A stretch of 64,000 nt of DNA from a virus (IMGVR_UViG_3300028788_000011:3449-67448); one strand, 5' to 3'. Counted from the stretch's first letter, positions 3,066-9,032 are shown. Made by a program: numbers and translations. Notes: a model not told the origin generated them from the letters alone.

Positions 3066-3586
3066 GACGTGATTATGCCTCGTTTTTGGTTAATTGAATG
3101 AACAAATTCCTGTAAATCTGGACTCCAGGCACCGTAACGTGCGACTTCGCTATGGAACGCCGTGACATCGTGCTCGCGGAGCCCGTAGACGGGGACGCCA
3201 TCGCGGTCGAACTTTGGGTCATCGAACTCGTTGACTTCTTGCTGGATATGACAGAGTTCATGCCAGCACAATGCCTCGCGATCGATCTCGCTGGCGGCAT
3301 TCCACCAGGGTTCGTCAATGACCATCAGGAAGTCGGGGAGCGCGCCGAAGTGCGCTGTCAGCAGTTGCTCGAAGAGATCGCCCAGCTTACCCTGGACTTT
3401 TGGCAGATGCACGGACCCTGCAATTGAGCGGCCCTGATGCCGCTTTTGCTTCCCGCACATCAGGTACTCGATTACGATGTCGTTGTCGACAATGTGTTTG
3501 TGCGTGGGGTCGCGTATTAGCCGCGCGCACACAGCCGCCGGTCCGGTATTTGGATCCGGCGTGCTGTATGGGCCGAAATCATCCAC
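3062..3586 (-). CDS. Putative phage metallopeptidase
   Basis: HELCH (HExxH) motif plus HDVTAF...VARYGAW tail characteristic of the phage metallopeptidase family. Confidence 0.8.
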   Translation of the reverse strand: MDDFGPYSTPDPNTGPAAVCARLIRDPTHKHIVDNDIVIEYLMCGKQKRHQGRSIAGSVHLPKVQGKLGDLFEQLLTAHFGALPDFLMVIDEPWWNAASEIDREALCWHELCHIQQEVNEFDDPKFDRDGVPVYGLREHDVTAFHSEVARYGAWSPDLQEFVHSINQKRGIITS

Positions 3587-3833
3587 GGCTGAACGCCCGC
3601 GCCGGCGGCCAGCCTGCCATACGCTTCAATTCGGCAATGGATATTTCCGTTGCCTCATGCACGCGCAGCAGGATCACTGGACCCATGCCGGCGCGGCCGG
3701 CACGCATATTCGACAGGCTGCAGGGATCGATGTCGATCAGGCGCGCCAGCGCACGATCATTTTTCACGCCTGTGCGCGTCAGGATGGCATCGAAAAAGGC
3801 GGATACGGTGACGGCGTTGGTGGTGGTGGTCAT
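3579..3833 (-). CDS. Small XRE-like HTH protein
   Basis: VKNDRALARLIDIDPCSLSNMRAG...VILLRVHEATEISIAELK; start reassigned to ATG 3833 (GAGG upstream). Confidence 0.8.
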   Translation of the reverse strand: MTTTTNAVTVSAFFDAILTRTGVKNDRALARLIDIDPCSLSNMRAGRAGMGPVILLRVHEATEISIAELKRMAGWPPARAFSRG

Positions 3834-3840
3834 ATTGTCC

Positions 3841-4083
3841 TCAGTGAAGCCATTGTGGTTCGGAATAGGCTGCTGCCAGCCTGGCATGGTATTCATCGGG
3901 GTCATCGTGCGCGCCATCGACACGGCCATTGCGCCAGCCGTGCCAGAACGCACGCGAGAACGTGCTGGCAATCGGTTCCGGCGCGCCGTAGACGCCAGCG
4001 ATGTAGCCTGCCTCGATGTCACCGCATACCAAGTCCTGACGCGCCAGATCGGCTAGGGTATCTATGGGTTTGAATTCGCTCAT
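3841..4083 (-). CDS. Hypothetical protein
   Basis: Co-oriented ORF directly downstream of a late-promoter-like motif. Confidence 0.65.
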   Translation of the reverse strand: MSEFKPIDTLADLARQDLVCGDIEAGYIAGVYGAPEPIASTFSRAFWHGWRNGRVDGAHDDPDEYHARLAAAYSEPQWLH

Positions 4084-4089
4084 GATTAT

Positions 4090-4105
4090 ATTCTGATATC
4101 ACGCC
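4090..4105 (-). promoter_or_regulatory. Late-promoter-like motif GGCGTGAT-AT-CAGAAT, 6 nt before ATG 4083
   Basis: Matches the motif found at seven other intergenic sites; overlaps the MTase stop codon. Confidence 0.6.
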
Positions 4106-5910
4106 ATGATGATGTCAGCAAATAATGTTGATTCGGAGAGAATGCGCTTGCGCGCCATCTCGGCGTAGGCCGGATTAAGTTCGATTCCTATGCAATGGCG
4201 CTGCAGCCGATCGGCAACCAGCCCGGTGGTGCCGGCGCCGAAAAATGGATCGAGTACGGTACACGGTACCACATGCGCGCCAACACATTTACATGCTTGC
4301 GACCAACCAATCGTTTCGACATTGGTATTTCCACGCGGGAAACCATCTCTGTGGTTTGATGCATCCAAAGGCTTTTGATCGCCAGCGCCACGCACGCCTT
4401 TTTCTTCGCTGACATCACTCTGTGGGACAAATGTCGATTCAGTATCTCGTCGCCATGGAGTTCCACAAACAGAGCATGCGCCATGCTGGCTTGATCCGGC
4501 TTTGATGCACGTCTCCGGTAATTCCGGCGGGAAGGTGGCAAAATGCGCATCCTTGAACGAGTGGGTTGCCATCGTCCAGACGCTGCGCTTGTTGCGTTTT
4601 TCTGACGGCACATATTCCTTATATTCTGCTTCGTTGCGGCCTTCGCGGTGAATCGTTCCGTGGGCTCCAGCATCAGTATCCCATCCTCCTGGAACCTTGA
4701 TTTTTATGGAGCGCTGCTTTTCAGCATAGGCCAGTAATCCTGCCTTTGTCCGGTGACTGTCATCACCATTTTCGTAAGCTACTTGGCCTTTCGGCGGGTT
4801 GACATTACCGGGGAGTCTTTGCCGATGTTGCGCAGCCGATTGCCCTGGTAAGACATGCTCAGATACAGGCCCAGTGCGATCAAACACTGCTGCTTGCCCA
4901 GACCATGTTTGCGCCGGTTCCTTAATCGCTTCGGCATCGTAGTAATACTTCGCACTTTTCGTCAGAAAGAAAATGTATTCGTGCGACTTGGTGCAGCGGT
5001 CAGTGACGCTTTCTGGCATGGGATTGGGTTTCGACCAAACGATGTCTTGACGAACCCACCAGCCGGCGTCCTGTAGCGCGATCGCCAGTCGGTGCGGCAT
5101 CATCACAAGGTCTTTCGGTTTCAGGGCCGCACTGGTAGAATGTCCGGATGCCAAGCCCAAAGCATCCTTGCCCACAGTGCCAGACACCGACGCGCGCTCG
5201 GCTATGCAAAAATTGCACGCCACCGTATGAGAGAACTCCGGATCGCAATCAGGCAATGAGCACCCGCACGAAAGGCATTCGTCGGCCCGGCGTTGTATCG
5301 GCAAGCACGAAGCCGGAGGTGGCAAAGAAAATCCTTGATTGGTGGACGCCGGAGCGGCGCGAAGCGGCACGTCTGCGAGCCCAGAAGAACTTGGCTGACC
5401 CAGAATGGCGGCTTCGGTGTGGGCAGCCTGGAGAGACGAATCCAATGTGGGAAAACGGTCGGTCACAGATACCGTATGCCCGCGGCTGGACTCGGACTGC
5501 AAAGGCTCTGGCATGGCAGCGAGCCGAGAACCGGTGTGAAATTTGCCAATGCGAGACGCCTTGCGACACCCATCACAAAGATTTCCGCAAAGACAACCAT
5601 GATCTATCGAATCTGCAGGTACTTTGCCGGAGGTGCCACAAGAGGCTGCACGTTGAGCACCTGACCAGTAAGAATCACCCATGTTGATAAAGCAAGTGCC
5701 GTCCGGCCGCAACACACGACGCACTTCCTCGAACACCGCCACCATCGTGGCGATGAATTCCGCCGGCGTTGCTTCAAGTCCGAGCTGGCCATCGACGCCA
5801 TAATCGCGCAATCCCCAATATGGCGGGCTGCTCACGACGCAATGCACTGAGTTATCGGGCAACTTGCGCAACTGCTCGCGGACATCGCCAACCATGATCG
5901 TAACGGTCAT
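4099..5910 (-). CDS. N4-cytosine/N6-adenine DNA methyltransferase (beta class) with a ~180-aa in-frame insertion
   Basis: SPPY catalytic motif near the N-terminus, NMGDSY, KPKDL, WSKPNPMPES, HFATFP, DPFFGAGTT SAM-binding motif near the C-terminus. Confidence 0.92.
   Translation of the reverse strand: MTVTIMVGDVREQLRKLPDNSVHCVVSSPPYWGLRDYGVDGQLGLEATPAEFIATMVAVFEEVRRVLRPDGTCFINMGDSYWSGAQRAASCGTSGKVPADSIDHGCLCGNLCDGCRKASRIGKFHTGSRLAAMPEPLQSESSRGHTVSVTDRFPTLDSSLQAAHTEAAILGQPSSSGLADVPLRAAPASTNQGFSLPPPASCLPIQRRADECLSCGCSLPDCDPEFSHTVACNFCIAERASVSGTVGKDALGLASGHSTSAALKPKDLVMMPHRLAIALQDAGWWVRQDIVWSKPNPMPESVTDRCTKSHEYIFFLTKSAKYYYDAEAIKEPAQTWSGQAAVFDRTGPVSEHVLPGQSAAQHRQRLPGNVNPPKGQVAYENGDDSHRTKAGLLAYAEKQRSIKIKVPGGWDTDAGAHGTIHREGRNEAEYKEYVPSEKRNKRSVWTMATHSFKDAHFATFPPELPETCIKAGSSQHGACSVCGTPWRRDTESTFVPQSDVSEEKGVRGAGDQKPLDASNHRDGFPRGNTNVETIGWSQACKCVGAHVVPCTVLDPFFGAGTTGLVADRLQRHCIGIELNPAYAEMARKRILSESTLFADIIMA
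5148..5687 (+). CDS. HNH endonuclease nested antisense inside the MTase gene
   Basis: CPQC...CKNC N-terminal zinc knuckle, NUMOD3-like GETNPMWENGRS, and CEIC...DTHHKDFRKDNHDLSNLQVLCRRCHKRLH HNH core. Confidence 0.88.
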   Translation: MPSPKHPCPQCQTPTRARLCKNCTPPYERTPDRNQAMSTRTKGIRRPGVVSASTKPEVAKKILDWWTPERREAARLRAQKNLADPEWRLRCGQPGETNPMWENGRSQIPYARGWTRTAKALAWQRAENRCEICQCETPCDTHHKDFRKDNHDLSNLQVLCRRCHKRLHVEHLTSKNHPC

Positions 5911-6089
5911 CCCCGCACCAACCGTTCCCGCACCTCGACAACGCTCTCATAATTCCCCATGGCGAGCGGCGGGAAAGGCCGCTGCGAGATGGTGACCACG
6001 AGCCCGAGCTTGTTCGCGGCTATCACCAGGTCGCGCGCGCAGGATTCGACCTCGCGCTGGATTTGGTTGTCGGCTACGGCAGTATTCAC
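5907..6089 (-). CDS. Hypothetical protein
   Basis: Coupled overlaps with both neighbours. Confidence 0.6.
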   Translation of the reverse strand: MNTAVADNQIQREVESCARDLVIAANKLGLVVTISQRPFPPLAMGNYESVVEVRERLVRG

Positions 6090-7021
6090 TTTTTACCCCT
6101 GGCAACATCAAACACGCTGAGATAGTCCAGCATCTCAACGACCTGTTCGCGCGACAGCGTTGCGACGGTGCGATCGCCATCGGCGATGTGGAGTTCGCCG
6201 CTACTCCAGATCGCAAACGATGCCGCAGCGATGCGCAGCGGACCGGATGCAGCCGCCTGCTTGTCGCCATGAAGTAGCGACTCAACATGTGCAATATCCT
6301 CAGCTGTCGGCGCCGTGATAATGTACGTGGCATCGCCGAGACTCCACTCGACCTGCATGCGAGTGTCAGTGAGTTCGCGCGCAGTCGTCGTCGGTGCGGG
6401 CAAGTCCTCGGTCGGCCAGTCCAAACCCGTGAATTCCTTGTAGTCTTTTTTGTAATCGTCGTCGGTTGCGGGCACGTGCGGTGCAGGCTCCGGCGCTGCG
6501 TCAACCGCGCGCGTGCTGATAGCGGGATTGAACACCAACGGCTTCAGCGGTGCCGGCGCTGATCCAGCGCCAAGCGACCACTGGCGGCTGTTCTTGTTGA
6601 TCCTGCCGCCTTTGATCGCGCCGGCCAGCCATGTCGACGGGAACTGCCCTGGCTTGAGGCCAAGGACATGCGCGAGTTCGTCGCTGGTGGCGCTGCCGCC
6701 GTTGGCGGTAATGAACGCAATCGCCTTTTGCTCTGCAGTCTGCGGCTGGCCACCGGCGGCGACTTCAGCGCTTGCCAGCGCTTTCTCGAATATCGTCGGC
6801 AGTTCGGCCCCAGGCGCTCGGTAGACAGTGATGGTCTTGCCATCCTGCCGCGTGATTGCACTGCAAATCTGCTTGAGGTCGACGAGATCGACCAGCATCG
6901 TATAGGCGACATCGAGTTCGATGTCGAAATGGTCCGCCATATGATCGCATGTGGCGCCAGGATTGACAGTTACGAACGTCGTTATCTCGGCGCCGAGATC
7001 ACGCGGGAGTGGTGCTTTCAC
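6086..7021 (-). CDS. Protein with two winged-HTH-like domains
   Basis: NPGATCDHMADHF and NGGSATSDELAHVLG segments resemble wHTH recognition helices. Confidence 0.6.
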   Translation of the reverse strand: MKAPLPRDLGAEITTFVTVNPGATCDHMADHFDIELDVAYTMLVDLVDLKQICSAITRQDGKTITVYRAPGAELPTIFEKALASAEVAAGGQPQTAEQKAIAFITANGGSATSDELAHVLGLKPGQFPSTWLAGAIKGGRINKNSRQWSLGAGSAPAPLKPLVFNPAISTRAVDAAPEPAPHVPATDDDYKKDYKEFTGLDWPTEDLPAPTTTARELTDTRMQVEWSLGDATYIITAPTAEDIAHVESLLHGDKQAAASGPLRIAAASFAIWSSGELHIADGDRTVATLSREQVVEMLDYLSVFDVARGKK

Positions 7022-8161: not shown

Positions 8162-8238
8162 TTCGTCATCCCTGAATTGATTTTTGTGGATGGTAGCATA
8201 TTCTAATTAATCAAATAAAGATATTTCTTTTAGTTTAT

Positions 8239-8285
8239 CGGATTTGTGCGTAAAACCTCGCCCTTCAGGGCGGGGAGGATGTCAA
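8239..8285 (+). mobile_element. 47-bp IS200/IS605 LE-RE fusion (PATE-like miniature element)
   Basis: TTAT|cggatttgtgcgt-AAAA-cctcgccc-ttca-gggcgggg-aggatg-TCAA; 5' half matches the left end and 3' half the right end of the element at 27264-28563. Confidence 0.8.
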
Positions 8286-8357
8286 AGATGTGTCTGCTTG
8301 GAAACGCACAGACGCCACCATTCCGACATGCTACTCGGTGCAAATACTTATCAAAAC

Positions 8358-8783
8358 GTCACGGTAACAGCGTAACAGCGATTGTTACCCGTTGTTACGA
8401 AATTGTTACGAGCCTAAGTCTTTGATTTCGTTACGTTTTTCACCTCCTTTATATATACAGTTACAAAGTTACATAGATTTATATATATAGATACATATGA
8501 GGTTATGGATATTGTGTATATGACAATTATATATATGTCGTGTGATACGCATATATGTATAGGTCTCCCCGGCGATTGTTACCGTTACTTGTTACCCCTT
8601 TAAAATCAATGACTTACGTCGATGTTACCGTAACAGGGTAACAATTTTTGTAACCGATCGATTTTGATGGGCGCGGCGTAACAATTGGGTAACAGACAAT
8701 TGTTACGTTTTTTACGTTTAAAATCAATTACTTACGTGCTTGGTAACGGTTTTTCTGTGGTAACACTGCGGGGATAGAGTTAC
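8358..8783. repeat. Probable replication origin: about 21 GTAAC/GTTAC pentamers, AT-rich core and three AAATCAANNACTTA boxes
   Basis: Counted by eye; near-perfect direct repeats TTTAAAATCAAT(G/T)ACTTACGT at about 8599 and 8717 plus an inverted copy at about 8416; (TA)n tract at about 8450-8560; non-coding. Confidence 0.7.
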
Positions 8784-8866
8784 TTGCGTGGTAGTGATAT
8801 CATTATCACAAGTTGCTTCGTTGCGACACCGGCTACGGTTCATGTCACTATTACTCAAAAAAGGAC

Positions 8867-8895
8867 TTTACTTAAATTTGATTAAGGTCTATTAT
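8867..8895 (+). promoter_or_regulatory. Sigma70-like promoter TTTACT-N17-TATTAT
   Basis: Correct spacing, upstream of the rightward operon starting at 8922. Confidence 0.65.
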
Positions 8896-8921
8896 TAAAT
8901 CAAGGACTCAGGGAGAGCAAA

Positions 8922-9032
8922 ATGTACATCACCGATCACACCAAATACCGCGAATACATCGCCACCGAGTATTTCCGGCAGCACATTCTCAGTTTCCAGC
9001 AGTGGCTTCGTCGGTGTGCCAATCCGGCATAA
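8922..9032 (+). CDS. 36-aa protein MYITDHTKYREYIATEYFRQHILSFQQWLRRCANPA (not in ORF track)
   Basis: GGGAGAG RBS; first ORF after the promoter. Confidence 0.6.
   Translation: MYITDHTKYREYIATEYFRQHILSFQQWLRRCANPA

Follow-up and report, generated by a model that had tools for sequence, protein, structure and literature searches.

Two genes on opposite strands of one locus

Analysis of a 64,000 nt stretch of an uncultured viral contig (positions 3449-67448 of the IMG/VR record IMGVR_UViG_3300028788_000011, 67,448 bp long and 73% complete according to CheckV), here called the window, revealed two genes that share the same DNA on opposite strands. The minus strand carries an unbroken open reading frame (ORF) of 603 aa, at 4099..5910, for a DNA methyltransferase (methylase). 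Nested antisense inside it, the plus strand carries a 179-aa ORF, at 5148..5687, for an HNH endonuclease. Both ORFs had been placed at these positions in a first-pass annotation made from the sequence alone, which proposed either a homing endonuclease that does not kill its host gene because it hides there as a translated antisense loop, or an inseparable methylase-nuclease pair. The stretch is present in 24 peat-metagenome DNA runs; no RNA run was listed as containing it.

Judging from its motifs and its profile match, the 603-aa ORF is a beta-class N4/N6 DNA methyltransferase (PF01555). Motif IV (SPPY, residues 28-31) lies near the N terminus and motif I (DPFFGAG, residues 554-560) near the C terminus, and the Pfam model N6_N4_Mtase matched with an E-value of 9e-43 (147 bits, against a cut-off of 26.7). 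Its relatives in the PDB are TTHA0409, CcrM and N4C methyltransferases. An alignment of 45 insert-bearing sequences showed the catalytic motifs to be invariant or nearly so. The PF01555 match fell in separate stretches, residues ~1-80 and ~270 onward, with a gap at ~80-270. Alignment and AlphaFold2 modelling delimited an N-terminal core (residues 1-81, ending in NMGDSY; 5668..5910, minus strand) and a C-terminal core (residues 263-603, beginning with LKPKD; 4099..5124, minus strand). The predicted local distance difference test (pLDDT) score of the core was 90-98, while that of residues 82-259 was 31-48.

Between the two cores lies an insert of 543 bp, or 181 codons (5125..5667), with boundaries taken from a DNA alignment against two insert-free alleles and from loop lengths. 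It takes the place of the entire native loop and holds a predicted promoter and all but a small part of the HNH ORF. From NMGDSY to LKPKD, the loop of the window methylase has 181 residues, which agrees with the approximately 180 extra codons first noted between NMGDSY and KPKDL; the 112 insert-free homologues have 0-56 residues there and the 62 insert-bearing homologues have 154-258, a bimodal distribution across the 174 methylases sampled. Both 5148 and 5910 are multiples of 3, and codon position 1 of the nuclease gene therefore pairs with codon position 1 of the methylase gene. The TGA stop codon of the HNH ORF (5685..5687, plus strand) is the antisense of aTC-Aac, within host codons I75-N76; its origin in the antisense of the INMGD codons had thus been read correctly. 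The last ~7 HNH residues are encoded opposite the conserved NMGDSYW, and a recurrent class of loci shares a 22-nt overlap.

The earlier statement that neither an intron core nor intein ends are present also held. A search of positions 3500-6500 against Rfam, which represents described intron families only, gave no intron match at E-values up to 1. An intein was rejected: the junction residues, W82 (after NMGDSY) and L263, offer no Cys, Ser or Thr nucleophile, no Hint fold was found, and the insert is predicted to be disordered. The alignment of methylase homologues also contained other insertions, namely ~190 extra residues before AHFATF in P0075, an insertion after LRDYG in P0028 and P0036, and an unrelated insert in the same loop in P0090; these could hide other nested elements.

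The 179-aa ORF is assigned to the HNH (beta-beta-alpha-Me) superfamily on the basis of its motif residues and profile matches, in keeping with the zinc knuckle, NUMOD3-like region and HNH nuclease proposed at first pass. It has an N-terminal zinc ribbon of the CxxC...CxxC type (C8, C11, C20 and C23), a helical, NUMOD3-like middle, and an HNH core with a further CxxC...CxxC (C130, C133, C160 and C163) together with H142, H143, N155, H164 and H168. Among 66 HNH sequences, H142, H143, N155 and the four core cysteines were invariant, and H164 and H168 nearly so. The ORF matched PHROG 333 with an E-value of 3.5e-9, as well as ten further HNH PHROGs. The single sequence matched the Pfam HNH model PF01844 with an E-value of 0.008 (16.7 bits, under the Pfam cut-off of 21.4), while a profile of the family matched the HNH domain of a group II intron maturase (6me0) with an E-value of 3e-6. 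PF07460 was found in the relatives P0171, P0177 and P0184. The AlphaFold2 model of the nuclease (pLDDT 86.8) showed two short strands (140-143 and 156-159) followed by a helix (161-176), and its top Foldseek matches were all HNH nucleases (Cap5, the GVE2 HNH, McrA and IscB), although weak ones (E-values of 0.08-0.3).

Recurrence of the arrangement and constraint on the two frames

Inspection of 5.8 billion proteins yielded 71 called homologues of the HNH protein, and a scan of metagenome DNA yielded 240 stretches confirmed as encoding one; 80 of these 240 were fetched, and a few more loci came from genomes and viral contigs. Nested nucleases of this kind are largely invisible in annotation because gene callers report just the long ORF. 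The wider NUMOD-like/HNH family comprised 6,530 representative clusters at E-values up to 1e-10, and the close subfamily 30 clusters at E-values up to 1e-30. A tblastn search with the HNH protein against 50,697 deposited phage genomes gave no match.

At 84 loci with an HNH homologue of 38-80% identity, the methylase frame was free of stops across the HNH match in 80, while the other two antisense frames contained ~7.5 and ~3.5 stops on average. At 70 of the 84, a single antisense ORF joined the N-terminal part of the methylase, the antisense of the HNH gene and the C-terminal part of the methylase in frame; most of the remaining loci were cut by contig ends. Two more distant homologues (L009 and L011, 29-32% identity) were likewise nested. 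The first-pass annotation had named, as an observation that would speak against it, homologous inserts commonly carrying stops in the methylase frame; the counts above show the opposite.

Four loci had stops in the methylase frame. At L063 the methylase was truncated, and at L127-129 its two halves lay in different frames. In L127 (1244-2064), L128, L129 and L003 (1173-1742), whose HNH homologues are 32-45% identical, it was the codon-aligned antisense frame that was open, with stops in the usual methylase frame; these may represent a split-gene solution or decaying copies. At L110, the methylase (~2700-2726) had two in-frame stops just after motif IV (SPPY-stop-stop-WG), and the downstream antisense-HNH insert was still free of stops. 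At L109 (362-1042), an HNH homologue lay upstream of the methylase start, outside the loop, with an antisense frame open for 227 codons and non-methylase flanks; the element may lie in another host gene here, or be a remnant.

Chance was rejected as an explanation for the open frame. When the synonymous codons of the window's HNH gene were shuffled, the methylase frame remained open in 1.1% of the trials, with 3.3 stops expected. Shuffles of each HNH gene gave 4.2 expected stops in the methylase frame and a mean probability of finding none of 0.028 per locus. This test is conservative, because it keeps a codon set that has already been purged. The combinations that make a stop in the methylase frame, i.e. 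an NTT, NCT or NTC codon followed by A, were seen 9 times in 69 dereplicated genes, while 481 were expected if neighbouring codons were independent. The two features singled out at first pass, the pairing of position 1 with position 1 and the absence of stops in the methylase frame, were both verified, and the methylase frame is under selection to stay free of stops.

The two frames differed in the constraint they showed. Compared pairwise, the HNH genes differed by 0.34, 0.33 and 0.59 at the first, second and third codon positions, and the same DNA gave 56% amino-acid identity in the HNH frame versus 30% in the methylase frame. Judging from these substitution patterns, the HNH frame is under purifying selection. 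For pairs of insert-bearing genes, the ratio of nonsynonymous to synonymous substitutions (dN/dS) was 0.34 in the methylase core versus 1.28 in the insert read in the methylase frame. With the contrast between a confidently modelled nuclease and a mostly disordered methylase loop, this evidence says that both strands are probably translated and that a single folded domain, the HNH, would be encoded in the shared DNA.

Part of the loop departed from this picture. The methylase frame of the insert contains a Cys motif, C106-x-C108-x3-C112-x2-C115 (5566..5595, minus strand), in which C112 and C115 are set by the wobble bases of HNH H143 and D140, and a second Cys pair, C212-x2-C215 (5266..5277, minus strand), set by the wobble bases of HNH G43 and R40. 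The only part of the loop with a raised pLDDT (~71, at residues 110-120) coincides with the conserved Cys pattern. Changes at the wobble sites compared are synonymous for the nuclease but exchange Cys for Tyr in the methylase frame. The wobble base was C in 93-97% of the sequences at G43, D140 and H143, versus 30-71% (mean ~47%) at 21 control sites (Fisher p 8e-33, the sequences not being corrected for shared ancestry). The comparison supports selection on these methylase-frame Cys residues. The description of the insert at first pass as Ser/Cys-rich nonsense on the methylase strand therefore stands in that most of it is disordered and evolves freely, but it was not pure nonsense, since part of the Cys pattern is conserved.

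Mobility and expression of the nuclease gene

In a tree of the methylases built with the loop masked, the insert-bearing genes were scattered, requiring 13 parsimony changes. The window methylase stood alone within ~90 insert-free relatives; a deep clade contained 33 insert-bearing methylases, whose cores are under purifying selection. The window core was 80% identical to that of an insert-free relative (P0119), and 51-54% identical to those of the hosts of the closest HNH homologues (73% identity). Across loci, HNH and host identities were weakly correlated (Spearman 0.24). At two loci, L090 and L092, the insert was 100% identical; the flanks were 93-98% and then 77-90% identical, the methylase cores differed with a dS of 0.5, and the genes beyond were unrelated. 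This is the pattern expected if recent homing had taken place with co-conversion of the flanks. Sporadic presence, in the same loop at all loci, combined with apparent horizontal spread is the distribution by which homing endonuclease genes are recognized. The patchy distribution, the discordance between nuclease and host, and the identical insert in diverged hosts point to a mobile element of the homing type.

A sequence resembling an extended -10 promoter element, TGGTAGAAT, was found at 5133..5141 (plus strand), separated by exactly 6 nt from the ATG of the HNH ORF at 5148. The arrangement was conserved across loci, and the case for a promoter was made because of this conservation: 48 of 67 evaluable dereplicated loci (~72%), the window included, had a match of at least 7 of 9 positions to TGGTATAAT (TGGTAnAAT) exactly 6 nt before an in-frame ATG, while 0.6% of all ATGs in these loci had such a match at that spacing. 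A TTGAC(a/t) motif was present 17 nt upstream in many loci, though not in the window. No Shine-Dalgarno sequence precedes the HNH ATG of the window. This suggests that the element has its own extended -10 promoter, with transcription predicted to start at the A of the start codon and to give a leaderless mRNA. The mRNA produced from the PRM promoter for the lambda cI gene is a textbook leaderless mRNA, and its layout is similar (a -10 hexamer, ~6 nt and the ATG, with a start at the A of the start codon and no Shine-Dalgarno sequence); the resemblance is one of layout only, the start being predicted in the present case. A terminator-like hairpin followed by a T-run lies at 6066-6092 (plus strand), ~380 nt past the HNH stop codon; by its pattern only, it could end the HNH transcript.

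Interpretation, related systems and genomic setting

The reading that best accommodates these results, with a probability estimated at roughly 0.78, is that the locus contains a compact, mobile homing-endonuclease cassette, placed antisense in a loop of a solitary phage methylase and read through without an intron or intein. The cassette, of ~545 bp, would consist of the extended -10 promoter, the leaderless ATG and the zinc-ribbon/NUMOD-like/HNH ORF, and would occupy, antisense to the host gene, the surface loop that links the NMGDSY strand to the LKPKD helix in a solitary beta-class N4/N6 methyltransferase. Ribosomes translating the methylase would continue across the strand opposite the nuclease ORF, giving a loop of ~180 mostly disordered residues, and the host gene would survive, its product presumably still active. 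As a consequence of this read-through, selection for phage fitness would purge every NTT, NCT or NTC codon followed by A that gives a stop in the methylase frame. The nuclease would be expressed from the opposite strand by its own promoter. Its probable targets are methylase alleles without the insert, carried by phages that co-infect the cell or reside in it; recombinational repair would then copy the cassette into the cut allele, together with short tracts of co-converted flank. This is the first of the two proposals made at first pass, and it gained support from the stop-free frame, the purifying selection on the HNH gene, the patchy and discordant distribution, and the L090/L092 pair.

Several points weigh against this reading. 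The mosaic seen in L090 and L092 could also be explained by ordinary phage recombination, and the tests made across loci include no phylogenetic correction. A generic sigma-70 scan did not flag the HNH promoter of the window, which has no recognisable -35 region; the scan missed it because there was no -35 match. A minority of relatives (L003, L111 and L131) have an HNH start led by a Shine-Dalgarno sequence, and the leaderless start is therefore not universal. No insert-free allele was seen in the contigs of four peat runs that share part of the window's sequence words, the low share being due to fragmentation only; in those runs, one contig covers the whole insert and both junctions and is identical to the window, and no joints were found. 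Finally, the conserved Cys motif shows the loop to be more than tolerated junk, something that a purely parasitic model would not foresee. It can be proposed tentatively, at somewhat less than even odds, that the 540 bp truly code on both strands and that each product is under selection: the nuclease frame would evolve under ordinary purifying selection, and the methylase frame would be kept free of stops and would carry, in the wobble bases of the nuclease, a Cys knuckle or clasp, possibly a zinc-binding one that joins the two ends of the loop, while the promoter would give a leaderless mRNA convergent with the host transcript.

The Cys pattern might be taken further, as a sign of a domesticated dual-coding module in which the insert has a function in the methylase (e.g. 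as a knuckle or clasp that binds zinc), the phage and not only the element benefits from the nuclease (e.g. through the exclusion of competing phages), and both strands are under positive functional selection. The nearly fixed wobble C at G43, D140 and H143, the locally raised pLDDT in an otherwise disordered loop, and the deep clade of 33 insert-bearing methylases with cores under purifying selection would all fit such a module. This was nevertheless deemed unlikely: most of the loop is free to evolve in the methylase frame (30% identity and a dN/dS of ~1.3), the distribution is patchy with many close relatives lacking the insert, the Cys test is not corrected for shared ancestry, and zinc binding is hypothetical.

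The second proposal made at first pass, an inseparable restriction-modification (R-M) or addiction pair, fared worse and was considered improbable. The HNH nuclease would cut a sequence that its methylase protects, loss of the methylase would be lethal, and the two would be inherited as one unit. In its favour, nested genes cannot be separated, an antidote would need an open frame such as the methylase has retained, and HNH nucleases serve as Type II restriction enzymes. However, 112 of the 174 methylases sampled are insert-free and work alone, so that most relatives are solitary, and the similarities of HNH and methylase are nearly uncoupled, with no co-divergence on the part of the nuclease. 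Further, one HNH lineage occurs in methylases ~50% identical to each other with very different variable regions, the combination of zinc ribbon, NUMOD3-like region and HNH (with PF07460 in relatives) is a homing-endonuclease architecture, and the nuclease persists beside a broken methylase in L063 and L127-129. Nuclease and methylase do not appear to be inherited together, as they would be in a Type II R-M system. Least probable of all, and given very little credence, was removal of the insert before or during translation, by an unrecognised intron, an intein-like element or ribosomal bypassing, the open frame being incidental. Introns, inteins and bypass elements do occur in phage genes, and the Rfam search was limited to described intron families. 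Nonetheless, a removed insert would be under no selection against stops in the host frame, contrary to the purged junctions (9 versus 481), there was no Rfam match, no Cys, Ser or Thr at the junctions and no intein fold, and a structured intron RNA would fall on the strand antisense to the HNH gene.

The closest known system to the proposed homing cassette is the ShiLan domain, or 'hidden HNH', insertion in actinobacteriophage DNA methylases (Gosselin et al. 2023, PMC9957025; Arsenault, Gosselin & Gogarten 2025, PMC11855218). In that system, mycobacteriophage methylases carry an insertion free of stops in which an HNH gene lies out of frame on the same strand; no intron or intein was found, and leaderless translation of the hidden HNH is raised as a speculation (PMC11855218). 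That report makes no use of the terms antisense, opposite, reverse, complement or promoter (PMC11855218). The window element resembles ShiLan in having a homing-type HNH gene in a ~200-codon insertion of a phage PF01555 methylase, hidden in a host frame free of stops and without an intron or intein, in its disjunct distribution, and in a host-frame peptide predicted to form a loop with little order. It differs in that the nuclease lies on the opposite strand, with codon position 1 facing position 1, and separate, convergent transcripts are therefore needed; in the predicted extended -10 promoter of its own and the apparently leaderless ATG; and in the HNH family, which is of the zinc ribbon/NUMOD-like type rather than HNH_3-like. 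The insertion site (the NMGDSY/LKPKD loop) and the methylase subfamily (SPPY rather than DPPY) differ as well, and the hosts are uncultured phages of peat, groundwater and soil rather than actinobacteriophages. Inspection of gp64 of Mycobacterium phage Mantra, which is of the ShiLan type, showed a PF01555 methylase with DPPY, a LAGLIDADG insertion and a 229-aa HNH ORF on the same strand in another frame; this HNH is of another type, at another site than that of the window. Adjoining it, gp62-gp63 (L138, 1118-2415) consist of an annotated free-standing HNH gene and, immediately downstream and overlapping with it, a homologue of the window methylase that lacks the insert (42% identity).

The stop-free insertion hiding an HNH ORF without an intron or intein is common to both systems; the strand, a homologous HNH and the site are not. 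No published opposite-strand case was found in the open-access literature, subscription journals being outside the scope of the search. The window element is an opposite-strand variant of the recently described hidden-HNH insertion, and the HNH promoter motif is new here. Free-standing or gene-splitting phage homing endonucleases, such as mobE in the 'genes in pieces' nrdA of Aeh1, provide a further comparison. In these too a conserved phage gene keeps its function after invasion by an endonuclease that has neither intron nor intein, and the loci with a methylase in two frames (L127-129) resemble them; in the window, however, the host gene is unsplit and would be read through.

A homing endonuclease, it has been thought, can spare its host gene only from within an intron or intein or from a position between genes. 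The 2025 ShiLan report described a same-strand exception and left the mode of expression of the hidden nuclease unsaid. The opposite-strand family would be a self-contained cassette with a recognisable promoter and a quantifiable signature of selection (~480 expected junctions reduced to 9); some of its loci serve as natural controls, the frame decaying there after inactivation of the methylase. It also offers evidence that the synonymous sites of one gene can hold amino-acid information for a gene on the other strand. If both products are indeed under selection, homing endonucleases would have, in addition to introns and inteins, a third general means of residing inside genes, namely opposite-strand read-through, and these loci would form a natural test bed for the limits of antisense dual coding.

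As for its setting, the methylase gene is a member of a minus-strand operon, its ATG overlapping the stop codon of the upstream ORF 5907-6089 (ATGA); neighbouring genes include those for a helix-turn-helix protein and a nucleoside 2-deoxyribosyltransferase-like protein. Between this operon and the plus-strand genes beginning at 9002, positions 8200-9000 of the window are AT-rich (GC content 35-43% versus ~57% around) and lack any ORF of at least 70 aa; this segment may be a divergent control region or an origin.

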